Origin: Halogeometricum borinquense DSM 11551
GTDB taxonomy: Archaea; Halobacteriota; Halobacteria; Halobacteriales; Haloferacaceae
NCBI RefSeq assembly: GCF_000172995.2
Contig: NC_014729.1
Span: 150,001-182,000 of the forward strand
DNA length: 32,000 nucleotides
Direction: 5' to 3'
The notes under the pieces were generated by a model. It worked only from the letters and a program-made list of their open reading frames with translations, ran no database searches and was not told the DNA's origin. Below, piece after piece: positions 8,842 to 20,901 of this stretch (positions are counted from its first letter, which is position 1; each line of letters opens with the position of its first letter). Made by a program: the position numbers and the translations under genes.

Positions 8842-9336
8842 TTACCGGCGCAAGCGGGGGTATGTCGCGCCGAGAACGATACCGTACAGCACGTGGCCGA
8901 CGAGGCTCATCAGGTCGAACGCGGGAAGCGACGGCGCGCCCGCGAACCCGACCGCCGAGAGCCAAAGCGGCATCACGAACACCGCGAGAATCCCCCAGAG
9001 AACAACGCCGTAGGCGGTTCCGGCAATCGCCGCGCGGGTGACCGTGCGCCCGGGGTCAGGCCAAAGGCGAAGGACAGCCACGAACACGACGCCGAGGAGC
9101 GCCCCGTGCGAGAGATGGATACCCATTCCCGCCATGCCGCCGGAGAGGCCATACATGCTCGGGATGGCGGCCGTCAGCGCTGCGGGAGCGGAGATGGCCA
9201 ACAACGCGCTGAACGCGACGGCACCAAGAAGCCCGGCGACCACACCGGCCTGCCAACGCTCAACCCCAGTCGTCAGTTCCGACTGTTCATCTCGTTGCTG
9301 CTGTTCCACTGATCCAGTCGTTGCTTTTGTAGACAT
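8842..9336 (-). CDS. small multi-pass membrane protein, tandem paralog B (function unknown)
   Basis: 164 aa with about 4 hydrophobic segments. Shares the motif set listed for paralog A. Confidence 0.72.
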   Translation of the reverse strand: MSTKATTGSVEQQQRDEQSELTTGVERWQAGVVAGLLGAVAFSALLAISAPAALTAAIPSMYGLSGGMAGMGIHLSHGALLGVVFVAVLRLWPDPGRTVTRAAIAGTAYGVVLWGILAVFVMPLWLSAVGFAGAPSLPAFDLMSLVGHVLYGIVLGATYPRLRR

Positions 9337-9537
9337 AACGCCGGATAGAAGCGCTCTGAGAGCATAACCCTCTCTCGGTCAGGACACCACCACGCACAGG
9401 ACCGGTCGGGTGCACGAAACGCGGTCGCACTCAACGGACTGCAAGCGAGTCAAGGTTGCAGTGATAAATCGAAACGCCCCGCAACCAAACGTCCACTCAA
9501 CCGGGACGTTATAACCGATGCCGCGCAAGAACGCATC

Positions 9538-11715
9538 GTGGCAGAGACGAGCGGATACATGCGGTTCTTCCCGTACGACCGCCCGTACCCGAACCAGGGC
9601 GAAGCGATGGACGGCATCGCAGAGGCCCTCGAAGCGGAACGCGACGTACTCGTCGAGGGTGCGCCGGGGACGGGCAAGACGCTCTCGGCGTTGGTTCCCG
9701 CCGTAGAGTACGCCCGACAGGAAGACAAGACGGTGGTCATCACGACGAACGTCCATCAGCAGATGCGCCAATTTGTCGAAGACGCGCGCGCCATCACCCG
9801 AACGGAGCCGATACGCGCCGTCGTTTTCAAGGGGAAGTCGTCGATGTGTCACATCGACGTTGAGTACCAAGAGTGCCAGACGCTCCGCGATACGACGCGA
9901 AGTCTCGTCGAGAAAGAGCAGGACAAAGCGGAACTGTCCGAGCAAGCCGACGCACTCGTAGACCGGATGCGCGCGGGCGAGCAGGGCGCAGCGGACGCGC
10001 GGACGGCCGTCACCGACGAGCTCGATACGCTCGAAGACGAACTCGAAGACCTGCGTGAGGGCAACATCTGCGAGTACTACTACAATAACCTCACCGAGGA
10101 CACGGACGAGTTCTTTTCGTGGCTGTTCGACGACGTGCGGACCCCCGAGGACATCTACGAGTACGCCGACCAGCGGAAACTGTGCGGCTACGAGCTGCTG
10201 AAAGAAGGGATGGAAGAGGTGGATCTCGTCGTCTGTAACTACCACCATCTGTTGGACCCGAACATCCGCGAGCAGTTCTTCCGATGGTTGAACCGCGAAC
10301 CCGAGGACGTGATCACCGTCTTCGACGAGGCGCACAACATCGAGTCGGCCGCGCGCGACCACGCCAGTCGGGCGCTGACCGAGAACACCTTAGAGCAGGC
10401 GTTGAACGAACTCGAAGACACCGACGACTCCCGCGCCGACTCGGCGGAAAACGTCATTTCGGCGTTCCTCGATGCACTCAAAGAAACGTACGACGAGGCT
10501 TTCGGCTTCGGCGAACGCGAACAGGTCGGCGAGGACTGGTACGACCTACCGATTGCCAACAACGACAGGCGCGACGACCTGACGCTCGCGTTTCTCGACA
10601 GATACGAAGGCCGGGGGATCAGCACGGAAGTCGAGTTAGCGCTCCAGTTGGGCAAGCGCCTCGACGACGAGTACGAGGAAGCGTACAAAGATGGCGAGGC
10701 GACGACGCGACAGGAGTGTCAGACCCTCCAAGCCGCCACGTTCATCGACACGTGGATGGCCGACGGCGGGAAGTTGGGCCAGCATCCCATGTGTTCGGTT
10801 CGCCGCGACGGCGGCACCGACGAAGTGTACGGTCGCGCCGAACTGTACACCTGTATCCCGCGGGAGGTGACCGAGACGCTGTTTGAGGAGGTACACGCGA
10901 GCATCCTCATGTCGGCGACGCTCCGGCCGTTCGACGTGACCGAAGACGTACTCGGGCTGTCGGATCCGGCGACGATGGCGTACGGACTGGCGTATCCAGA
11001 AGAGAACCGGCACACGATTGCCGTGCAGACGCCCGCACTGTTCAGTTCCGAACGCGAGGAACCAGCGACCCAAGAGACGCTGACGCAGGTACTCACGGAT
11101 GCCTCGCGGTTCACACCGGGGAACACGCTCGTATTCTTCCCGTCGTATGCCGAGGCGGAACGCTACCACGAACGCCTGCAAGCACGGATGGATGTAACGG
11201 ACCGTCTGTTCTTAGACGAATCAGGGACGCCGACTGAAGAGATCCGGTCGAAGTTCGTCGAGAGTCAGAGCGCGATACTGCTCACTTCGTTGTGGGGAAC
11301 GCTCGCAGAGGGTGTGAGTTTCGACGGCGATGATGCCAGAACCGTCGTCGTTGTAGGCGTGCCGTACCCGCATCTCTCAGAGCGGATGGAAGCGATTCAG
11401 GACGCCTACGACAGAGTGTACAGCAGTCGGCGAGAGGCGGGGTGGCGCTACGCCGTCGAGATTCCGACCATCCGCAAGACGCGGCAGGCGCTCGGACGCG
11501 TCATCCGGTCGCCAGACGACTTCGGCGTGCGCATCCTCGCGGACAAACGCTACACACGCGCGAGTTCCGAGATGGGTAAGTACGGCGTGCGTTCGACGTT
11601 CCCGCCCGAAGAGCGTGCTGAAATCGTAGACGTCTCCGCGGAGAAGTTGAAGTTCGCCATGTTGAATTTCTACGGCGATCACGACGCCTACGACGGCGAT
11701 CCACCCCGACCCTGA
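9538..11715 (+). CDS. XPD/Rad3-type (DinG family) Fe-S DNA helicase
   Basis: Walker A GAPGTGKT and DEAH box VFDEAHN. Four cysteines in the Fe-S region (SMCH, ECQ, ICEYYY, LCGYE). C-terminal helicase motifs: GTLAEGVSFDGD, QALGRVIRS. The start is ambiguous: GTG 9538, which sits about 27 nt downstream of TTATAA at 9508-9513, or ATG 9559 (MRFFPYDRPYPNQ). Confidence 0.88.
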   Translation: MAETSGYMRFFPYDRPYPNQGEAMDGIAEALEAERDVLVEGAPGTGKTLSALVPAVEYARQEDKTVVITTNVHQQMRQFVEDARAITRTEPIRAVVFKGKSSMCHIDVEYQECQTLRDTTRSLVEKEQDKAELSEQADALVDRMRAGEQGAADARTAVTDELDTLEDELEDLREGNICEYYYNNLTEDTDEFFSWLFDDVRTPEDIYEYADQRKLCGYELLKEGMEEVDLVVCNYHHLLDPNIREQFFRWLNREPEDVITVFDEAHNIESAARDHASRALTENTLEQALNELEDTDDSRADSAENVISAFLDALKETYDEAFGFGEREQVGEDWYDLPIANNDRRDDLTLAFLDRYEGRGISTEVELALQLGKRLDDEYEEAYKDGEATTRQECQTLQAATFIDTWMADGGKLGQHPMCSVRRDGGTDEVYGRAELYTCIPREVTETLFEEVHASILMSATLRPFDVTEDVLGLSDPATMAYGLAYPEENRHTIAVQTPALFSSEREEPATQETLTQVLTDASRFTPGNTLVFFPSYAEAERYHERLQARMDVTDRLFLDESGTPTEEIRSKFVESQSAILLTSLWGTLAEGVSFDGDDARTVVVVGVPYPHLSERMEAIQDAYDRVYSSRREAGWRYAVEIPTIRKTRQALGRVIRSPDDFGVRILADKRYTRASSEMGKYGVRSTFPPEERAEIVDVSAEKLKFAMLNFYGDHDAYDGDPPRP

Positions 11716-11784: not shown

Positions 11785-13143
11785 ATGAGTACGCGACCGC
11801 CGGGGCCGAAGGGCGTGCCGTTGTTCGGAAACAGCCGAGAGTACGCGAAGGACCCGTTCACGTTCCTGAGGCAGGTTTCGGAAGCGTACGGCGACGTGGT
11901 GTACTTCGGTCTCGGCCCGCTCGACACTTACATGCTCACCAACCCCGCCGACATCGAACGGGTGTTGGTGTCCGAAGACGCGAAGTTCCACAAGCCCGAC
12001 TTTCAGGACGACGCCATCGGGACGCTTCTGGGTGACGGACTTCTGCTGAGCGAAGGCGAGACGTGGCGGAAACAGCGCGAACTCGCCCAACCGTCGTTCG
12101 ACCCCCGGCGCATCGCAGCGCTGGGCGAGACGATGACCGATCACGCGACGGCCATGGTCGAAGGGTGGAACGACGGCGAGGTGCGCGACGTACAGTTGGA
12201 GATGGCGCGCGTCACAGTGAAAATAATCGTGGACGCCATGTTCGGGTCGTCGCTTGCGGACGAACGCGTCCGGACAGTACAGGAGAATCTCGAACCCCTC
12301 GGCAAGCGTTTCGAACCCGACCCGTTGCGGTTTCTCATCCCTGACTGGGCACCCACGCGGGAGAACCGCGAGTACAAGCAGTCCATCTCGATTCTGGAGG
12401 GAATCATCGACGATGTGGTAGCCGAACGACTCGGGACTGAAAACGACCCATCGGCCGCAGTGGCAGGCGAAGACGGCGCGCCGATGGACCTCCTATCTGT
12501 TCTCCTCCGGGCGAAACAGCGCGGTGAACAGACCGACCAACAGATACGCGATGAAATGATGACGATGCTGTTGGCGGGCCATGACACCACCGCACTGACG
12601 CTGACGTACGCGTTCTATCTGCTCTCACAGCATCCCGAATCGGAGGCGAAAGTGCAGGCGGAGGTGGACAAGGTGTGCGGCGGCGAGACTCCAACTGTCG
12701 CCGACGTTCGGCAGTTCGACTACCTCGAACGGGTGCTACAGGAGGCGATGCGCCTCTATCCGCCCGTCTACGTCATCTTCCGCGAACCGCAGGTGGACGT
12801 GCGTCTCGGCGGCTATCGGATCCCATCGGGGTCTGCTATCATGCTCCCGCAGTGGGTGGTCCACCGGTCGCCGCGGTGGTACGATGCGCCTACCGAATTC
12901 GACCCGGACCGGTGGCGTCCCGAACGGCGGGCGTCGCGCCCGCGCTTTTCGTACTTCCCGTTCGGCGGTGGACCGCGTCACTGCATCGGCAAGCAGTTCT
13001 CGATGATGGAAGCGAAACTCATCCTCGCCACCGTCGCGCAGGCGTACGAACTGGATTACGTGCGCGACCGACCGTTCAGCCTCCGCGGGTCGTTGACGAT
13101 GCATCCCGAAGAACCGATGGGAATGCGACTGCGGGCGCGGTAG
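11785..13143 (+). CDS. cytochrome P450
   Basis: 452 aa. Heme-thiolate loop FPFGGGPRHCIGKQF, I-helix LLAGHDTT and the ExxR motif (QEAMR). Confidence 0.92.
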   Translation: MSTRPPGPKGVPLFGNSREYAKDPFTFLRQVSEAYGDVVYFGLGPLDTYMLTNPADIERVLVSEDAKFHKPDFQDDAIGTLLGDGLLLSEGETWRKQRELAQPSFDPRRIAALGETMTDHATAMVEGWNDGEVRDVQLEMARVTVKIIVDAMFGSSLADERVRTVQENLEPLGKRFEPDPLRFLIPDWAPTRENREYKQSISILEGIIDDVVAERLGTENDPSAAVAGEDGAPMDLLSVLLRAKQRGEQTDQQIRDEMMTMLLAGHDTTALTLTYAFYLLSQHPESEAKVQAEVDKVCGGETPTVADVRQFDYLERVLQEAMRLYPPVYVIFREPQVDVRLGGYRIPSGSAIMLPQWVVHRSPRWYDAPTEFDPDRWRPERRASRPRFSYFPFGGGPRHCIGKQFSMMEAKLILATVAQAYELDYVRDRPFSLRGSLTMHPEEPMGMRLRAR

Positions 13144-13202
13144 GGGATTCGGACACGATAGGGAGCTGCGGACGCGATAGGGGACTTCAGGTACAGTAGT
13201 GC

Positions 13203-13987: not shown

Positions 13988-14068
13988 GTGTCTTGCGGGG
14001 AGCCACTTCAGATACGCCGAACCGGAAACAGCAGAGATAGGATCCAGTCGAATACTCGTGACGGCGTT

Positions 14069-15034
14069 CTATCCGAGCAGTGGCGTATGGTTGCCGTCGC
14101 GTTTGTGGACTTCGGGATACATCTCGAAGTGGTCGTAACGGCGGGAATCCCGGAACTTCCCGAAGCCGACGACGTGGAATTCCTCGGGCGGGACGACGCC
14201 CATCTTCAGGAAGCAGTCTCGGACCTGACAGCGCAGGTGGTGATCGAGATATGCCGGGAATTCATCGAACGATTCGGGTGCGTACGGGAGCAGTGACAGA
14301 CGGGCATCAGCCTGGTGAGTGAACGGTGAGTCGGCTTCATCGACCTCGTGTTTACCCAGTCGATTCGGATAGCCGATGTGGAGTCCGGAAACACCAGTAA
14401 TCGTCAGGTTTGTTGTGAGGTCCTCGCGAGTGACGATAGCTGCAAGATCGTCTCCGAAGGCTTTCCAACGGCTGAGCGTCTCGTCGCTGAGTTCCGAAAC
14501 GGGCTGGACTTCGGCACTTTCCTCAAGATCGAACCCGTGGGCAGTCGCCAGTGCTTGGGCGCGCTCTGCGACATCTTCACCGACGGCTTCTAAGCCGAGA
14601 TAGATCTCTGGTTCGTAGACGACTGCATCCGGTTTGCGGACGCCTGAGGGGAGTTCTCGAGGTCGCTCGGTGTCGTCGTGGTGGCTGCGGAGTTGCCTGT
14701 AGAGCGCTCCAAAGTACCGCTTGAATTCTGCCGGTGACAAGTCCGCGATGGCCCGGCGCACTGCATCCACGTACGCCGGATTCTCTATATGTTCGACGGT
14801 GTCGTACCCCCGCTGGGCGAATACGTAATACTTCGCGTAGCGTCGCGCTTGATTATTGTATTCGTTCTCCTCGGAGGTACGGCGATTGGCATCGTCTGCG
14901 TACGCATCACATTGGTGGTACGGGATATCTCCTGAATTCTTGTCAATAGTCAATTCATGCTCTGAATCAAGGTTATCTGTAATATACACCTTAACATAAT
15001 TCTCGTCTTCACCTTCGATAGTGGATTCCATCAT
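14069..15034 (-). CDS. unknown-family acidic protein, partner 2 of the cassette (candidate immunity/accessory protein), paralog of 15613..16647
   Basis: 321 aa. Its ATG overlaps the stop of the upstream orphan gene (tcat at 15031-15034, i.e. ATGA). It shares blocks with the 344-aa paralog: NQARRYAKYYVFAQRGYDT vs NQARRFAKYWVYRKRGYDT, and HHLRCQVRDCFLKMGVVPPEEFHVVGFG vs HLLCQIRDCYLTMGIAPPEQFRILGHG. Confidence 0.8.
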   Translation of the reverse strand: MMESTIEGEDENYVKVYITDNLDSEHELTIDKNSGDIPYHQCDAYADDANRRTSEENEYNNQARRYAKYYVFAQRGYDTVEHIENPAYVDAVRRAIADLSPAEFKRYFGALYRQLRSHHDDTERPRELPSGVRKPDAVVYEPEIYLGLEAVGEDVAERAQALATAHGFDLEESAEVQPVSELSDETLSRWKAFGDDLAAIVTREDLTTNLTITGVSGLHIGYPNRLGKHEVDEADSPFTHQADARLSLLPYAPESFDEFPAYLDHHLRCQVRDCFLKMGVVPPEEFHVVGFGKFRDSRRYDHFEMYPEVHKRDGNHTPLLG

Positions 15035-15564
15035 TGACCACCTCCACTATACGGGTCAGAACCACCATGATCGTTCCTTGCCTCGATGAACTCTTGATAC
15101 ATCTCGGCCATTTCGTAGTACATCTGCTCTAGTTTGTCGGCTTCGCCACCGGGACGATTATTCATCATTGTCCCGACAAACTCTCTGGAAACGGTTTGGG
15201 CAATGGAGGTAACGCCCCCTATAAACGCGGCTGCGCCAGTCGCTTCTGGACTCCCAGTCATGGCACCGATACCGAGGCCGACACCTACGCCGGTCGCCCC
15301 CTTCATGCTGGCACCTTGCCAATCGAAGTCTTCGGGTGCGCCCGGCGAGGCTTCCAAGAGCGTTCCCATCATCTGCTCTTGGCGGTCTTCGATGTTCTTG
15401 ATATTCGTCTTGTGGGTCTCGATACTCTCATCGTGCTCGCTGACTTGCTGTTGGAGGTCTTCGACCGCTCCGTACAGCATTCCGTCATCGGCTTCTGCGG
15501 GCATCCGCTGAACGTGCACGTCTGAGTGCTCCATGCGATGCACGCCGATTTTCCCGCCTTGCAT
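15031..15564 (-). CDS. orphan toxin-like C-terminal module: conserved junction peptide plus a glycine-zipper/hydrophobic C-terminal domain. It lacks the DUF4157 domain.
   Basis: 177 aa. The first 22 residues, MQGGKIGVHRMEHSDVHVQRMP, are identical to residues 268-289 of the 429-aa protein (65-bp DNA repeat). The rest is unrelated and contains GATGVGVGLGIGAMTGSPEATGAAAFIGGVTSIA. An in-frame TAG lies 3 codons upstream of the ATG. Confidence 0.72.
   Translation of the reverse strand: MQGGKIGVHRMEHSDVHVQRMPAEADDGMLYGAVEDLQQQVSEHDESIETHKTNIKNIEDRQEQMMGTLLEASPGAPEDFDWQGASMKGATGVGVGLGIGAMTGSPEATGAAAFIGGVTSIAQTVSREFVGTMMNNRPGGEADKLEQMYYEMAEMYQEFIEARNDHGGSDPYSGGGQ
15500..15564. repeat. 65-bp direct repeat, copy 1 (junction of the orphan module)
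   Basis: ggcatccgctgaacgtgcacgtctgagtgctccatgcgatgcacgccgattttcccGccttgcat. It matches 17068-17132 at 64/65 positions. The single difference is at 15556 vs 17124 and is a synonymous Gly codon. Confidence 0.95.
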
Positions 15565-15612
15565 TGCGTGCTAGCGGACCCCTCGAATACTGCGGAATAA
15601 CTTCATGGCCGG

Positions 15613-16647
15613 TCAGGCCTTGGTTTGAACGTTTTTGTTAGCGGGCTCGTGTTCGTAGGCACCTTCGGGTGTGTTCTCTACGTACCACGTGTCAATCTCG
15701 GCGTTGGGGTCGAAGTATTCATCGTAGATGTCGTAGCTGGCGTATAACCCCGTGGCTTCGTGGCGACCGTGGCCGAGGATACGGAACTGCTCAGGTGGTG
15801 CGATTCCCATAGTGAGGTAGCAATCCCGAATCTGGCACAGCAGATGTCTGGCGACTTGGGCCTGCAGTTCGGTAATCGAGTCCGGCTCGAAGGGGAAGAT
15901 TTCGATGCGGGCGGCCGGGTCACGACCAAGGTCAGGTTGGTCTCCCCATTGGGTATGGTACTCGCCCGGCGGGTCATCCCAGTGTACATGAATACCCGAA
16001 GTAGCTTCCAGTAGGAGTCCCTCGCTGAGGCTTGGGAGTGAATCAGAGTCCCGGTCGGATGCCTCTGCGATTAGTTCTTTGAAGGTCGGAACGTACTCTG
16101 CTCCAACCAGGGATTCTCCGCCAACGCCGACAGACTTGCCGACCAGTTCCATCAGTTTGGGATCCGCAAGGAGATCAGCCGCGATTGTCCCCAGAGTCTC
16201 GTCTTCAAGGCCAACGTAGATGTCTTTCTGATAGACTGTTCCACCGCCCTGTTCGGGAACGCCCTCGGGCATTTCGACCGGCGAGTCAGCAGTTCCATTG
16301 ATACTCTGGAAGTGCTGATAAAAGTCGCCTAAATGGGTTTCCGCAGTTTCGGGTTCCAGTGGTGTCAGAGCAATTGCGGCTGCTATGATCCGATCTGGGT
16401 TCTCCGTTGGGGGAATCGTGTCGTATCCGCGCTTGCGGTACACCCAGTACTTCGCAAAGCGGCGAGCCTGATTGACGTGGATGTTTCCGGCTCTTGTCCG
16501 CTCACTCGGGTCATCCGGGTAGCCATCCTGTTCGTGGTAGGTGATTTCGCCATCGAAGTTGACAGAAATCCCATGACTCACTTCGTTATTATCAATAACT
16601 CTCAGTCCGACACCACCATCATCTTCCCCGCCAAGAACTGCTCTCAT
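15613..16647 (-). CDS. unknown-family acidic protein, partner 1 of the cassette (candidate immunity/accessory protein), paralog of 14069..15034
   Basis: 344 aa. Its ATG overlaps the stop of the DUF4157 gene (tcat at 16644-16647). Conserved blocks are shared with the 321-aa paralog at both termini, and the middle is variable and acidic. Confidence 0.82.
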   Translation of the reverse strand: MRAVLGGEDDGGVGLRVIDNNEVSHGISVNFDGEITYHEQDGYPDDPSERTRAGNIHVNQARRFAKYWVYRKRGYDTIPPTENPDRIIAAAIALTPLEPETAETHLGDFYQHFQSINGTADSPVEMPEGVPEQGGGTVYQKDIYVGLEDETLGTIAADLLADPKLMELVGKSVGVGGESLVGAEYVPTFKELIAEASDRDSDSLPSLSEGLLLEATSGIHVHWDDPPGEYHTQWGDQPDLGRDPAARIEIFPFEPDSITELQAQVARHLLCQIRDCYLTMGIAPPEQFRILGHGRHEATGLYASYDIYDEYFDPNAEIDTWYVENTPEGAYEHEPANKNVQTKA

Positions 16648-17933
16648 TTGCTCACCTCATCAGCAGAAGGGACTCTCTCTGGCCGGTCTCCCGACCCAGT
16701 CCCATCAGACACTTCTTGGGCAACCCGTCTGGCTTCGTCGAGCCATGTTTCTGGTGGGTCCATTTCAGCGAGTTGGCCCTTCCACGAGTCCGGGAAGTTG
16801 GCCTCGGCGAGTCGGTCTTGGAAGTTGCTCTCTTTGAATTGCTGTTGCGCGTTGTTTTTCGCGGCGCGTACGCCTTTGACGCCCGGAATGATGTTTGCGT
16901 AAGCCGCCATTTGAGCTTTGAACCCTTCATAGGCAACTTCGTGGCCGTCAATATCATCCCAGTTTTCCCGGATCTCCTGCAACTGCTCGCCTTCCTCCAG
17001 CATCTTCGGAATCATCATCTGACTGGCCACCAATGCAGTTGCACCGCCAAGAACGGTTTCTGCGCCAGGCATCCGCTGAACGTGCACGTCTGAGTGCTCC
17101 ATGCGATGCACGCCGATTTTCCCACCTTGCATCACGCGCTGGGCGGTTTCTTCGGCTTCCCGTTCCAAGCGTGGGTCAGGATCAATCTCTAACTCGCCTT
17201 CTTGGGGAAGCATCGACACCGCGCCGCCCGTTTGCTGGCGCACGTGTGCTAACTCGTGGGCGAGAATATGCTGGCCTTCAGCACTCGATGGATCGTACTC
17301 GCCGTGGTTGAACGCGATGTGATTGCCGACGGTAAACGCGCGGGCGTTGATATCCTCGCAAGCTTTCGCGGCCGATGGACCCGTGTGGACGCGTACATCG
17401 CCCAGATTGTCGCCCATCCGATCTTCCATCGCGCGCTGGATGCTCGTGTCGAGTTGCTGGCCGGGCGAGGAAATCACGTCTCGCACTGAGTCGGGCACGT
17501 TCGCGTCACCAGCCTTGCTTGCTTCGTGATGCGCGCCGCGACTGCGCTGGACGGATTTAGCGTTCCGGCGTTCGATGTCCTTTGGGACTTCCGCGGGCCG
17601 TTCTTTCTGACGCTGGCGGAACGCGCGCATGTCGCGTGGCTTGCCCATCGTATCGACGGTCATGCCTTCGTCGGCCCACTGCCGAACTTGATCTGCGCCG
17701 TGTTTCTTGGCCAGTCGCTGAATCTTCGTATCCAGCCCATCCATGTAGATCTCTACCCCGAAGCGAGACTCACACTCTTGGGGTGTTAGCGAACCACCGC
17801 CACCACGACTCTGATTTCGATTCGAGCCTCCCGTCAGCTCTTGAATAGACGGAACGGACGAGGACTCTTTGCTCGGAGTCGTCCGTTCGTTCGCAGACCG
17901 AAATCTCATTCTTACTGCAAACTTGATAGCCAT
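16644..17933 (-). CDS. DUF4157 (zincin-like HExxH metallopeptidase / pre-toxin) domain protein with a variable C-terminal domain; candidate polymorphic toxin
   Basis: 429 aa. Residues about 150-234, GQQLDTSIQRAMEDRMGDNLGDVRVHTGPSAAKACEDINARAFTVGNHIAFNHGEYDPSSAEGQHILAHELAHVRQQ, match the DUF4157 consensus as I recall it (L....R..ME..fG.dfs.VRvHt...A......A.AfT.G..I.F..g.y.P....G..LLAHEL.HV.QQ). The start is ambiguous. TTATATA at 17936-17942 (minus strand) and a TT at -10/-11 fit a leaderless start at the second ATG (17909, MRFRS...) at least as well as 17933. Confidence 0.85.
   Translation of the reverse strand: MAIKFAVRMRFRSANERTTPSKESSSVPSIQELTGGSNRNQSRGGGGSLTPQECESRFGVEIYMDGLDTKIQRLAKKHGADQVRQWADEGMTVDTMGKPRDMRAFRQRQKERPAEVPKDIERRNAKSVQRSRGAHHEASKAGDANVPDSVRDVISSPGQQLDTSIQRAMEDRMGDNLGDVRVHTGPSAAKACEDINARAFTVGNHIAFNHGEYDPSSAEGQHILAHELAHVRQQTGGAVSMLPQEGELEIDPDPRLEREAEETAQRVMQGGKIGVHRMEHSDVHVQRMPGAETVLGGATALVASQMMIPKMLEEGEQLQEIRENWDDIDGHEVAYEGFKAQMAAYANIIPGVKGVRAAKNNAQQQFKESNFQDRLAEANFPDSWKGQLAEMDPPETWLDEARRVAQEVSDGTGSGDRPERVPSADEVSK
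17068..17132. repeat. 65-bp direct repeat, copy 2 (internal to the 429-aa gene, encoding M268-M288 and the first two bases of the P289 codon)
   Basis: See copy 1. It marks the boundary between the conserved N-terminal part and the variable C-terminal domain. Confidence 0.95.
17232..17486 (-). other. DUF4157 zincin domain segment within the 429-aa protein (HELAH encoded at 17244-17258)
   Basis: Coordinates come from a residue count of the ORF. cacgagttagcacac (HELAH) was read on the minus strand at 17258..17244. Confidence 0.8.
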
Positions 17934-17935
17934 CC

Positions 17936-17947
17936 TATATAATTATT
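17936..17947 (-). promoter_or_regulatory. TATA-like box upstream of the DUF4157 gene
   Basis: The minus strand reads AATAATTATATAGG-ATG. The box lies about 27-33 nt upstream of the second in-frame ATG (17909). The whole 17934-18137 intergenic region is AT-rich and is shared with the divergent SPFH gene. Confidence 0.4.
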
Positions 17948-18137
17948 CGTTCCTCGGCTTCGTGGTGTGCAAATATGGGCGACGGATCGGCGTGGTTACC
18001 GGTCATCTCAGATATTCGCAGCCAAATATCGCTAAAAGATGATTCCAGGTGTTTGTGTTTTTCTTGAATCGGGGTACTGAACAATTCCATGTGAAAATGA
18101 GACGTACGCTTAATGTCGTCGGGACTAAAATACGGGT

Positions 18138-19271
18138 ATGGCCAACCTCTTCCGCCAACTCGGCCGCATGTCCGCTCAGGGACCGCCGGACTGGCTCCTG
18201 ACCGGAATCGGGCTGATCGTCGGGTTTGCCGCCGTGTTGGCGGTATTCGGATTGGATCCTGTCGTCCTCATCAGCGTTCTCGCCCTCATCCTTCTCGTAG
18301 CGACAGTTCTCAGCGCCATCGAAATCGTCAACGCCTACGAAAAGCGCGCGTTGACCGTGTTCGGAGAGTACCGCGGCCTCCTCGAACCGGGATTAAACAT
18401 CATCCCGCCGTTCGTCGCGCGCACGTACACGTTCGACATGCGTACCCAGACGCTGAACGTGCCGCCGCAGGAAGCGATCACCGAAGATAACTCGCCGGTC
18501 ACCGCCGACGCTGTCGTCTATCTGCGCGTGAAGGACGCCAAGAAGGCGTTTCTCGAAGTGGACCAATACAAGACGGCGGTATCATACCTCTCGCAAACGT
18601 CGCTTCGGGCCGTCATCGGCGATATGGAACTGGACGAGACACTGTCGCGGCGCGAGGAGATAAACCGCCGCATCCACAGAGAACTGAACGAACCGACGGA
18701 CGAGTGGGGTGTCGAAGTCGAATCCGTCGAAGTGAGCGAGGTGAAGCCGTCGGCAGACGTGCAGAGCGCGATGGAAGAACAGTCCTCCGCGGAGCGCCAC
18801 CGTCGCGCCATGATTCTGGAAGCGCAGGGGAAACGACGCTCTGCCGTCGAACGGGCACAGGGAGACAAGCAGTCGAATATCATCCGCGCGCAGGGTGAAA
18901 AGCAGAGTCAGATCCTCGAAGCGCAGGGAGACGCAATCTCGACCGTCCTTCGGGCCAAATCCGCCGAGTCGATGGGCGAGCGCGCCATCGTAGATAGAGG
19001 ACTGGAGTCGCTGCAGCGCATCGGCGAGTCGCCCTCCACGACGTACGTCCTCCCGCAGGAACTCACCAGTCTCCTCGGACGGTACGGCCGCAGACTCACG
19101 GACGCGAGCGTACAGGAAGCGCCGGGATTAGAGAGTCAGGATTTCGACATGGAGACACGCGAACTCCTCGGACTAGATGACGTAGACGACATCGCCGAGG
19201 GAGTCGAATCACTCACGAACGGCGACACCAACAACACCGAAATACGTCTCGAAGAGACAGAAGAAAACTAA
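18138..19271 (+). CDS. SPFH/band-7 (stomatin/prohibitin-like) membrane protein
   Basis: 377 aa. An N-terminal TM region is followed by an SPFH domain (YEKRALTVFGEYRGLLEPGLNIIPPFV...TEDNSPVTADAVVYLRV...LRAVIGDMELDETLSRREEIN) and a coiled-coil AQG-repeat tail. Confidence 0.9.
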   Translation: MANLFRQLGRMSAQGPPDWLLTGIGLIVGFAAVLAVFGLDPVVLISVLALILLVATVLSAIEIVNAYEKRALTVFGEYRGLLEPGLNIIPPFVARTYTFDMRTQTLNVPPQEAITEDNSPVTADAVVYLRVKDAKKAFLEVDQYKTAVSYLSQTSLRAVIGDMELDETLSRREEINRRIHRELNEPTDEWGVEVESVEVSEVKPSADVQSAMEEQSSAERHRRAMILEAQGKRRSAVERAQGDKQSNIIRAQGEKQSQILEAQGDAISTVLRAKSAESMGERAIVDRGLESLQRIGESPSTTYVLPQELTSLLGRYGRRLTDASVQEAPGLESQDFDMETRELLGLDDVDDIAEGVESLTNGDTNNTEIRLEETEEN

Positions 19272-19658
19272 AACACCGCACCGAATCAGACACAACGCCG
19301 CCTTCGTCGCACAACGTTTATGAACAATCATGCACATATTTATCATATGAGCCACGAACGCGGTTCGACCGGGCCGCAGGGAGCGTCGGTTCCGCGACCA
19401 ACGACGGCCGAAACGGGAGTTATCGCTCGGTTGAAACGCCACCTTCGGACGTGGCCCGACCGTTACGTCGAGATGCGAATCGGGACCGTTACAGCGAGGT
19501 ACATGGATTCAACGGCGACGAAACGGACGGCTGACTGACCGAGTCGGATACGTAACCGACGGCGAGGCCGCCGGAGCCTCGGCGGACGGGACAAATTCTA
19601 CGAGCGTCGAACAAGTCCGAAGTAGACGAGCGAAGGCGTATAGTGTCAAGTAGCGCAA

Positions 19659-19745
19659 CTGACGGGTGCCGTATCCGGGAACGCACTAACGGGTGCCGTA
19701 TCCGGGAACGCACTAACGGGTGCCGTATTCGGGAACCTAACGGTG
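19659..19745. repeat. 27-bp tandem repeat, about 3.2 copies (ctaacgggtgccgtatccgggaacgca)
   Basis: Copies at 19659-19685 (1 mismatch), 19686-19712, 19713-19736 (24 nt, 1 mismatch) and a partial copy at 19737-19745. It lies in the 544-bp convergent intergenic region between the SPFH and TauE-like genes. Confidence 0.9.
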
Positions 19746-19815: not shown

Positions 19816-20901
19816 TTAGGCGATGCCCGCAGCCATGAGGAACAGCGCGACGGAAATGACGGTGAACAGAACACCGACGAAGTTCTTGATAGTGTCCGTC
19901 TCCAGCGCGTTCGACACATAGGGGGCAATCTGGCCGCCGATAACCGTCGCCGGGACGGTGAAGACGACCATGTTCCACGGCGTCGTCGCCAGACTCAGCG
20001 AGTGACCGCCGACCAACCCGCCACCGAAGACGTGAACGAGGGAGGCGAGGACGGCAGTGAGTGCGACGACGATGTGGTTTGTACCGATAGCGACGCGGAC
20101 GGGGACGTTCGTCCCGAGCATCGAGATGATGCCCAGTTCACCGACGCCGAACCCAGCGAGACCCTGGAACAGGCCGCCGATGCTGTAGTTACCGAACCGG
20201 CGGAGGTATCCGCCGCGCGTGTAGGTGTAGTCGTCGCCCTCACGGTCCACCCGGGTGACGGTGCCGTTGTCGTCCGTGCGGACGCCTGCCGGTCCGAGTT
20301 TCCCCGCGTCGTTCGGCAGGTCCGTATTGAGAGAGCCACCGTCTGCAACCGCCTCGGAGTCGTCGCTACTGCCCGCACCCTCGTGTCCAAGGTCGGCGCG
20401 GAACAGCAGGTACGCCGACGCCAACAGCGCGAGACCGAGGAGCGAGTGGAACACCATCTCGGGAATGATGAATGACAGCAGTGCGCCCGCGATGACGAAC
20501 GGAACCGACCCGCCGACGAGCGTCAGTGCCAGTCGGCGGTCTACGAGACCGTACTGGACGAACGCAACCGCCGAACTCGACAGGCCGAACGCCTCACTGA
20601 TGAGACCAACCTTGACGATGGTCGTGGGTGAGAGCGGTTGGGCAAACTGCGGGAAGATGAAGATAAGGAACGGCACGAACAGCGCCGAACCGCTGATACC
20701 GACCGTGTTCACGATGGTTGCTCCGGTGAGGAACACCGGGAACAACCACCAGTATTCGAGCCAGTGGTCCAAACCGCCCGCGCCGTCCGTCGGGGCCCAC
20801 AAGAGGACGGCCGTAACGAACACGACGGGAGCGATGAGGACGAACAGGTGTTGATGTCTCAAGAACGACTTCTGTAGCCGACTGTAGGAGTCAATATTCA
20901 T
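19816..20901 (-). CDS. TauE/SafE (TSUP, DUF81) family anion-exporter-like membrane protein
   Basis: 361 aa and highly hydrophobic, with two repeated halves separated by an acidic loop. It has glycine-rich TM motifs typical of TSUP (GISGSALFVPFL, GFGVGELG). The family assignment was made by eye. Confidence 0.65.
   Translation of the reverse strand: MNIDSYSRLQKSFLRHQHLFVLIAPVVFVTAVLLWAPTDGAGGLDHWLEYWWLFPVFLTGATIVNTVGISGSALFVPFLIFIFPQFAQPLSPTTIVKVGLISEAFGLSSSAVAFVQYGLVDRRLALTLVGGSVPFVIAGALLSFIIPEMVFHSLLGLALLASAYLLFRADLGHEGAGSSDDSEAVADGGSLNTDLPNDAGKLGPAGVRTDDNGTVTRVDREGDDYTYTRGGYLRRFGNYSIGGLFQGLAGFGVGELGIISMLGTNVPVRVAIGTNHIVVALTAVLASLVHVFGGGLVGGHSLSLATTPWNMVVFTVPATVIGGQIAPYVSNALETDTIKNFVGVLFTVISVALFLMAAGIA

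Follow-up and report, generated by a model that had tools for sequence, protein, structure and literature searches.

The DNA analyzed in this work is a window of 32,000 nucleotides from Halogeometricum borinquense DSM 11551 (NC_014729.1, positions 150,001-182,000, forward strand), in which four genes encoded on the minus strand form an island that we interpret as a polymorphic toxin locus, probably with a spare toxin-immunity cassette at its downstream end. The first gene, Hbor_01880 (16644-17933), is a full-length polymorphic toxin gene with an open reading frame (ORF) of 429 amino acids, which is an exact protein match to ADQ65799 and ends in a variable C-terminal domain (CT) that we term CT-A. 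Its stop codon overlaps by 4 nt the gene for partner 1 (ADQ65798, 344 amino acids, 15613-16647), which is followed, after a 48-nt spacer, by the orphan toxin module Hbor_01860 (177 amino acids, 15031-15564), composed of a 22-residue junction and a second C-terminal domain, CT-B. The stop codon of the orphan in turn overlaps by 4 nt the gene for partner 2, Hbor_01850 (ADQ65796, 321 amino acids, 14069-15034), and both partners carry the family label DUF7958. The two toxin genes share a 65-bp repeat, of which copy 1 (17068-17132) encodes residues 268-289 at the end of the constant region of Hbor_01880 (...VHVQRMP), and copy 2 (15500-15564) is the same junction, hereafter the handle, kept at the start of the orphan.

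The two copies are identical at 64 of 65 bases and lie on the coding strand of both genes. The limits of the repeat, given in a preliminary description of this DNA, were borne out by self-comparison, in which a repeat finder widened the pair to 73 nt at 95% identity, and by a scan of the window with the 65-mer at up to three mismatches, which returned exactly two sites where 0.00 were expected from 100 shuffles. The same description had claimed a single synonymous mismatch, and this also holds: 15556 G versus 17124 A on the plus strand corresponds to GGC versus GGT on the minus strand, at Gly270. Both copies are read in frame and encode the peptide MQGGKIGVHRMEHSDVHVQRMP, which represents residues 268-289 of the 429-residue ORF and residues 1-22 of the 177-residue orphan. 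Past the 3' end of the repeat we found the short extension that had been reported, comprising a 1-nt difference, a 3-nt indel (GGC, Gly290 of the full-length gene) and then CGCAGAA[A/G]CCG, such that similarity in the orphan copy reaches 15488 once the indel is allowed. Outside the 22 residues there is no detectable similarity between the two proteins, in agreement with the earlier statement that the C-terminal domains are unalignable, and the partner proteins proved as distantly alike as had been described (32% identity, E 6e-53). On checking, the factual claims of that description all held.

Hbor_01880 is made up of an N-terminal helical domain, a DUF4157/PVC-metallopeptidase domain, the junction and CT-A. 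The DUF4157 domain (PF13699, also eCIS_core; residues 160-237, minus strand, 17223-17456) was recognized with an E-value of 9.6e-32 and 109.4 bits (cut-off 22), covering profile positions 1-78 of 79, and includes HELAH at 17244-17258. A homology search with the full-length protein retrieved 1,312 relatives, of which 120 were used for a conservation profile and 54 for an alignment of the zinc-binding signature HExxHxxQ...E; this signature is present, and its residues H226, E227, H230, Q233 and E257 are invariant in the 54 aligned sequences. The AlphaFold model shows a confident helical domain (residues 50-135), a confident DUF4157 domain (150-235) and a helix (254-268), followed by low confidence (pLDDT, the predicted local distance difference test) at residues 269-290, which suggests that the junction is a flexible linker. 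CT-A (residues 290-429 plus stop, minus strand, 16644-17066) is helical and gave no match in sequence searches of Pfam, NCBIfam or Protein Data Bank (PDB) chains, and a fold search of the full-length toxin model (predicted template modeling score, pTM, 0.37) against the PDB returned no meaningful match. Regarding the start of the protein, most homologs begin at Met9 (17909; MRFRS/MGFRS), eight codons inside the 429-residue ORF, and this methionine is nearly invariant; the GenBank version has 366 residues and begins at Met64, and the long start ATGGCTATCAAGTTTGCA, used by the published primer for the sister gene Hbor_38900, is also present here at 17916-17933.

The position at which the repeat ends is also the position at which the whole family ceases to be alike. 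In the closest relatives of Hbor_01880, many of which the same genome encodes, the match of up to 99% identity is confined to the first 45-67% of the query and gives way to unrelated C-termini; among paralogs an N-terminal portion of about 290 residues is common at 63-99% identity, with divergence past VHVQR. In several family members these variable C-termini are Pfam toxin domains, namely PF14410 (GH-E nuclease), PF14424 (deaminase) and PF11429 (colicin D). Across the 120 profiled relatives, the frequency of the commonest residue is 0.86-0.96 at residues 221-260, remains high at V283 (0.83), H284 (0.95), Q286 (0.97) and R287 (0.96), and is at most 0.2 from residue 288 onwards. The 3' end of the repeat is thus the exact point where the constant part of the family (residues 1-287, ending in the junction motif ...GGKIGVHRM....VHVQR) stops, and because conservation collapses right after R287 we identify the repeat as the constant/variable junction of a polymorphic toxin family. 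This bears out the suggestion that it resembles the VENN or PxxxxDPxGL boundaries of CdiA and Rhs toxins. Furthermore, about half of the full-length genes have constant-region fragments downstream of them. In the sampled loci the junction is reached by 14 distinct fragments, whose handles measure 66-426 nt; the 5' ends vary over residues 148-268, and the 3' ends always fall at residues 287-289.

The DUF7958 label of partners 1 and 2 rests on PF25858 matches recorded for the orthologs of partner 2 and the cluster mates of partner 1 (88-90% identical), as well as for 120 homologs, and DUF7958 was found in haloarchaea only; a Pfam scan of the two proteins themselves, with a copy that presumably lacks this model, gave no match. 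CT-A always occurs with a gene of the partner-1 type (about 90% identity) and CT-B with one of the partner-2 type (72-90%), across genera, from which partner 1 is the probable cognate immunity protein of CT-A and partner 2 that of CT-B. In addition, the 20 gene-specific nucleotides of a published primer, the reverse primer for Hbor_38910, are identical to the 3' end of the DUF7958 gene that follows a CT of the Hbor_38900 type at locus L028 (strain JAXCMF); since the primer matches a DUF7958 gene exactly, the validated immunity protein Hbor_38910 belongs to DUF7958, and this family has at least one experimentally supported immunity protein. We also considered Hbor_03000, the immunity gene of Hbor_02990, as a member; its C-terminal IGYGGK occurs in none of the retrieved DUF7958 proteins, and it was not assignable. 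An AlphaFold model of DUF7958 is confident (pLDDT 87, pTM 0.88) and combines helical parts with a beta-sheet unit at the N-terminus; a PDB search found nothing structurally similar (best E 0.29, TM 0.12 or lower), and the model may possibly represent an undescribed immunity-protein fold. At L028 (11773-12810), a lone partner-1-type gene, 88% identical to that of the window and with no CT-A before it, lies at the end of an orphan array beside the genes of the JAXCMF contractile injection system (CIS).

Hbor_01860 and Hbor_01850 have the appearance of a maintained pair. In CT-B a glycine-rich hydrophobic stretch comes after a coiled-coil segment, an arrangement also seen in the domain of Hbor_38900, a verified toxin, and searches of Pfam, NCBIfam and PDB chains returned no known toxin family or fold for CT-B; DUF5798 was considered and rejected, the match being weak, below the cut-off and within the coiled-coil segment. 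Four H. borinquense strains, whose flanking DNA differs by about 4-7%, carry intact copies of the orphan ORF and of its partner. The ratio of nonsynonymous to synonymous divergence (dN/dS) of CT-B is 0.13 relative to a Natrinema copy and 0.27-0.42 within the species, the latter from small counts, and is 0.10 for the partner-2 core and about 0.2 for partner 1. Because the ratios of CT-B and the partner-2 core lie below 1, the orphan pair is, as judged from these substitution patterns, under purifying selection and maintained rather than decaying. An exception to the general similarity of this pair among strains is a mosaic patch of about 235 nt (minus strand, 14850-15084, delimited by sliding identity) that takes in ~17 codons at the end of CT-B and ~60 at the beginning of partner 2: identity to other strains is ~50% within it versus 92-100% in its flanks, and three strains carry three unrelated versions. 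This suggests a second recombination boundary, close to NQARR(F/Y)AKY, a conserved motif of DUF7958. No source for the patch was found among the loci fetched; the version at locus L025 opens with the same ~25 residues as paralog P0240.

To place the two modules in a wider context, domain positions were mapped by tblastn over 27 loci. The preliminary description had set as a test of its reading that related strains show recombinant or alternative C-terminal domains at this junction, and alternative domains were found, both in strains and in genera, in full-length and in orphan positions. The same chromosomal site, marked by a 65-residue gene and genes for a 2',5'-RNA ligase, a cytochrome P450 and a helicase, was located in three other H. 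borinquense strains, all of which retain CT-B with partner 2 (nucleotide identity 92.6-96.4%) after an upstream module unlike that of the window. In G3I44 and JAXCMF this module has a different C-terminal domain and a different DUF7958 gene, the orphan possesses 141 more bases of constant region than that of the window, and homology to the window opens exactly at the orphan ATG. At these two loci (L021, 4091-5065, and L022, 73-1056, respectively) the first module is itself 5'-truncated and starts within DUF4157 at about residue 189, leaving two orphan modules and zero full-length genes at the site, and the upstream flank has DUF7845 and DUF488 genes in place of the SPFH gene of the window.

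Beyond the species, Natrinema thermotolerans (L016) has CT-B (73%) and partner 2 (72%) fused to a full-length N-terminus, and Haloferax larsenii JCM 13917 (L003) has CT-A (92%) and partner 1 (90%) as the third module of its locus, in orphan position; in another Hfx. larsenii (P0002), CT-A is full-length with the same partner type. Similarly, L028 has an orphan copy of the CT of Hbor_38900, a verified toxin, which follows another full-length gene and directly adjoins the sheath, tube and AAA genes. The partner-1-type genes of L003 (12579-13613) and of locus L024 in H. borinquense G3I44 (9001-10035) differ by a synonymous divergence (dS) of only 0.021, as compared with about 0.33 between window partner 1 and each of them, which points to a very recent module transfer between Haloferax and Halogeometricum. 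A search of a plasmid collection gave a lone match, on one Haloferax larsenii plasmid (82.6%). L024 (8882-10462; 1.58 Mb in G3I44) is a relic island without a full-length toxin gene, in which 28 codons from the end of CT-A and an intact gene of the partner-1 type are followed by a constant-region fragment with TAG for Gln286 of VHVQR. At three further loci, in three strains (L025, 1-5914; L026, 1-6912; L027, 1-6912), a conserved series of seven genes without Pfam matches, of about 945, 98, 97, 930-1030, 126, 119 and 127 residues, lies directly upstream of a full-length DUF4157 gene; this set is not in the window and could be an accessory or loading module for DUF4157 effectors.

The orphan is separated from partner 1 by a 48-nt spacer (minus strand, 15565-15612), which clarifies how the handle may have arisen. 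The preliminary description had claimed that homology decays immediately upstream of the orphan, with a stop codon at the position of Gln265. The position was correct, in that an in-frame TAG (15571-15573) lies three codons before the orphan ATG and aligns with the CAG of Gln265; the spacer does not appear to be decayed sequence of the orphan itself, as it travels with the partner-1 module. Its homolog (36/48) follows the partner-1-type gene of L024, a different site in strain G3I44, and there 'TAG CGC GCG ATG' joins the constant region at Met169 (MEDRMGD...) and not at Met268. On the simplest reading, the spacer and its TAG would be the 3' flank of the CT-A/partner-1 module. The motif CAGCGCG[C/T]GATG occurs twice in the full-length gene, the copies being 297 nt apart on the minus strand: CAGCGCGCGATG (QRAM, codons 166-169, 17427-17438) is where the L024 spacer joins the constant region, and CAGCGCGTGATG (QRVM, codons 265-268, 17130-17141) overlaps the 5' edge of repeat copy 1 and matches the 5' breakpoint of the orphan handle. 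We infer that the short handle of the window may derive from a longer one by deletion between the two motifs, or from a crossover at the second. An AT-rich element, AGTATT, that had been cited in favor of possible independent expression is indeed present 22-27 nt upstream of the orphan ATG; it reads AGTCTC in the homologous L024 spacer, and this lack of conservation weakens the idea of an independent promoter, with co-transcription still possible.

At the DNA level the junction varies unusually little within the species. Synonymous differences between H. borinquense copies affect 0-3 of the 20 junction codons, as compared with 18-37% of same-residue codons over the 107 codons upstream, and seven copies contain three variable sites only. 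The 65 bases are not equally conserved elsewhere, a point on which the preliminary description had made its reading depend, since Haloferax copies are 85-88% identical over the aligned part. Strain-specific junction haplotypes, as expected from concerted evolution, were considered and ruled out when L028 was added, JAXCMF having both haplotypes. The uniformity would fit repeated recombination or conversion ending at the junction, or a recent spread.

The function of the locus can be approached through published work on the same species. Zachs et al. (Sci Adv 2024, PMC11566945) demonstrated that H. borinquense kills Haloferax volcanii on contact by means of an archaeal type VI secretion system (T6SS), a contractile injection system bound to the membrane, and that an intact sheath is required for five DUF4157 proteins, Hbor_01880 included, to appear in the secretome. 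In that study, Hbor_02990 as well as Hbor_38900 was toxic in Hfx. volcanii unless the downstream gene was co-expressed; Hbor_01860, Hbor_01850, orphan modules and the junction are not mentioned, and the immunity family is not named. Both verified toxins belong to the same family as Hbor_01880, and the N-terminal part of Hbor_38900 is 98% identical to it and has the same junction peptide. No CIS structural genes were found in the window, and the locus is stand-alone, unlike the sister locus L028, which adjoins sheath, tube and AAA genes. With respect to the constant part, Zhang et al. 2012 (PMC3482391) gave the signature HExxHxxQ...E and predicted that the PVC-metallopeptidase frees the toxin by autoproteolysis, and Geller et al. 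2021 regarded the role of the DUF4157 peptidase as open. Cleavage by DUF4157 at or near the junction would be a plausible reason for the conservation of the peptide, and the predicted flexible linker is compatible with such cleavage without being evidence for it.

Together these findings make it likely, in our judgment, that this is a DUF4157-class polymorphic toxin locus serving the H. borinquense T6SS, with a downstream spare toxin-immunity cassette that shares the junction handle. This reading draws on the domain architecture, the family-wide junction, the co-inheritance of CTs and partners, the exchange of modules and the purifying selection on the orphan pair, all observed here, and on the T6SS-dependent secretion of Hbor_01880 and the toxicity and immunity of its sister pairs, which are taken from Zachs et al. 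(PMC11566945). The constant part (residues 1-287 of Hbor_01880) would serve for delivery and processing, and would be followed by the flexible conserved junction, the putative toxin domain CT-A and a matching DUF7958 immunity gene. Downstream, a displaced spare cassette would comprise the last 22 constant codons, CT-B as an alternative toxin domain and a DUF7958 immunity gene of its own. The 65-bp repeat may then be the scar of the recombination that put the CT-A module before CT-B, and at the same time the only homology through which the constant part could rejoin CT-B. Crossing over between the copies would remove 1,568 bp and produce a 444-residue toxin of the kind found in Natrinema. We infer, rather than observe, that recombination through this particular short handle occurs.

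A tentative extension of this reading, possible if unlikely, is that of an archaeal cassette system with two boundaries, in which the switching homology is itself maintained by frequent conversion or selection, and pieces of the toxin/immunity interface would be shuffled semi-independently of the toxin core. It is suggested because the synonymous sites of the junction are nearly identical and because a second boundary appears to lie at the CT-B tail and the N-terminal domain of the immunity protein.

A number of observations weigh against the cassette interpretation. Hbor_01880 was not toxic in Hfx. volcanii in the published assays (Zachs et al., PMC11566945), the toxin activity of CT-A is putative, and neither CT-A nor CT-B has a recognizable toxin fold or family. 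In each of the four H. borinquense strains seen, CT-B occupies an orphan position; no allele recombined through this 65-bp handle was found among the strains and loci compared, and two scans of metagenomes for the CT-B junction, one with DNA and a later one with protein, gave no hits. In Logan assemblies of the same strain the contigs end within the repeat, near 15528, an assembly-graph effect that is uninformative on recombinants. Of the intact handles sampled, that of the window is the shortest, so that recombination by this route should be rare. Finally, the lower synonymous divergence of the junction relative to the upstream codons gave one-sided Fisher p-values from 0.001 to 0.5, for non-independent pairs with small counts, and ongoing intragenomic conversion is not demonstrated because the junction haplotypes do not sort by strain. 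Consequently, of the preliminary claim that the repeat is a recombination handle for an exchangeable cassette, the exchangeable cassette is supported, since the same CTs occur in full-length and orphan positions elsewhere, and the use of this 65-bp stretch as the handle is presumed, with no recombinant found.

One alternative is that the orphan is an inert scar, that is, debris of the insertion of the CT-A module in a decaying cassette, with the 65 bp retained due to a recent event and a conserved ancestral peptide. Broken or short relics are indeed numerous (the TAG for Gln286 at L024, a frameshift at L010, and fragments at L004, L007, L013 and L019), the CT-A orphan of L003 keeps about 12 nt of handle, and the handle of the window is the shortest that is intact. 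However, debris would hardly account for an ORF and partner that are intact in four strains despite their flanking divergence, for dN/dS below 1 in CT-B and at 0.10 in the partner-2 core, or for the occurrence of the same CT types as full-length genes elsewhere, and we consider this explanation quite unlikely. If instead the orphan is maintained for its own sake, Hbor_01860 could be a stand-alone gene expressed from Met268, by co-transcription or from its own promoter, with the 22 residues kept for the needs of the protein, such as handling by the DUF4157 protein in trans or docking to the secretion apparatus, rather than as homology for recombination. The orphan starts with the Met268 codon, which the family conserves (0.93), an orphan with a different CT (P0125) is annotated from the same methionine, the array is tight and co-directional with its 48-nt spacer and 4-nt overlap with the partner, and the junction peptide is conserved family-wide. 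Other orphans, however, begin at a variety of positions within the constant region, and many of them have no proper start codon; the AT-rich element has not been kept in the L024 homolog of the spacer, and the product would be without the N-terminal 267 residues common to all secreted family members; on balance this too is unlikely.

Gene conversion was raised in the preliminary description as another source of the near-identity, in which case short conversion tracts among junction copies would uphold it and no cassette switching would take place at the locus. In most paralog pairs the synonymous divergence of the junction is below that of the adjacent constant region, three variable sites are all that separate the seven H. 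borinquense copies, and a clear conversion-like patch lies 400 nt downstream. Yet the haplotypes fail to sort by genome, switching between strains is directly seen, and conversion and switching use the same homology and are not exclusive, which makes conversion as the only process very unlikely. Reduced synonymous divergence is also the sole support for the idea that the 65 bases act as a nucleic-acid element, either a structured RNA or the target of a site-specific recombinase. This we consider extremely improbable: the folding energy of the repeat segment as RNA is no better than that of shuffles (z = +0.76), the island consists of four toxin/partner genes only, with no tRNA genes in the window, no recombinase or reverse transcriptase is among the genes annotated around the syntenic loci, and Haloferax copies reach only 85-88% identity.

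Several other features of the window were noted in passing. The G+C content is 55-58% over the toxin island (14000-18500) versus 61-66% in its flanks, which fits a horizontal origin. Between a convergent SPFH-like gene (18138-19271) and a membrane protein gene (19816-20901), three tandem copies of the 27-nt unit ACTAACGGGTGCCGTATCCGGGAACGC occur at 19658-19736 with 96% matches, and at 13129-13183, near the 3' end of the P450 gene, the 19-nt unit CTGCGGACGCGATAGGGG is present three times with 73% matches.

The archaeal T6SS was shown to work only in 2024 (Zachs et al., PMC11566945), and its effectors are barely characterized. Defining the junction provides a practical rule, by which each effector of this family can be cut after VHVQR into a delivery part and a warhead. 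Our analyses further indicate that haloarchaea keep reserve toxin-immunity cassettes which are exchanged between strains and even genera, and they link the uncharacterized family DUF7958 to immunity through one published and validated member. They also yield simple predictions that are testable in a genetically tractable archaeon.

No new principle is involved, as the logic is that of CdiA, Rhs and MafB, and the family has been called polymorphic in this species since 2012 (PMC3482391). Zhang et al. 2012 (PMC3482391) described the PVC-metallopeptidase toxins as polymorphic and gave H. borinquense as an example of a species with several of them, in which the metallopeptidase is constant and the C-termini, evolved by recombination, vary; in the case of haloarchaea they reported variable C-termini only, described no cassettes, and found most immunity families to be absent from archaea. 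The locus examined here belongs to the same species and gene family and has the same constant metallopeptidase-like N-terminus, variable C-terminal toxins, HExxHxxQ...E signature and delivery by contractile injection, to which we add orphan CT-immunity cassettes, a defined VHVQR junction and a dedicated DUF7958 immunity family. It is likewise of a kind with the published T6SS pairs of H. borinquense (PMC11566945), Hbor_01880 being among the five secreted DUF4157 proteins, with sister toxins that are neutralized by the downstream gene.

Three bacterial systems offer the closest parallels in arrangement, and a Pfam scan detected none of the filamentous hemagglutinin (FHA) or RHS repeats in the constant part of Hbor_01880, whose boundary is VHVQR and neither VENN nor PxxxxDPxGL. 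CdiA-CT/CdiI loci, which have a VENN boundary, FHA repeats and type V secretion, contain orphan modules in which displaced CT-immunity pairs keep a constant piece ending at the boundary. The short boundary peptide, the displaced downstream CT-immunity pairs with a piece of constant region and the immunity gene after each CT are all found here, whereas VENN, FHA repeats and type V secretion are absent, the host is archaeal and the handle is only 65-77 nt. For Rhs orphan toxin-immunity modules with their PxxxxDPxGL boundary, recombination between main and orphan copies has reportedly been selected experimentally in Salmonella. Our locus shares with them a T6SS-linked effector, a short core stretch on the orphan and a geometry in which recombination would delete the intervening toxin-immunity pair; it differs in having no RHS/YD repeats and no PxxxxDPxGL, in a constant part that is a small metallopeptidase-like protein and not a shell, and in that recombination was not observed. 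MafB proteins of the Neisseria maf islands are small toxins with a constant N-terminus and promoterless alternative 3' cassettes, each with an immunity gene. They have in common with the present family the constant N-terminus and the arrays of alternative 3' cassettes with immunity genes, but are unrelated to it in N-terminal domain, in boundary motif and in the route of secretion. Taken together, these comparisons indicate that the locus, by the analogy of its parts, works like the orphan systems of CdiA and Rhs but is not a member of either family.

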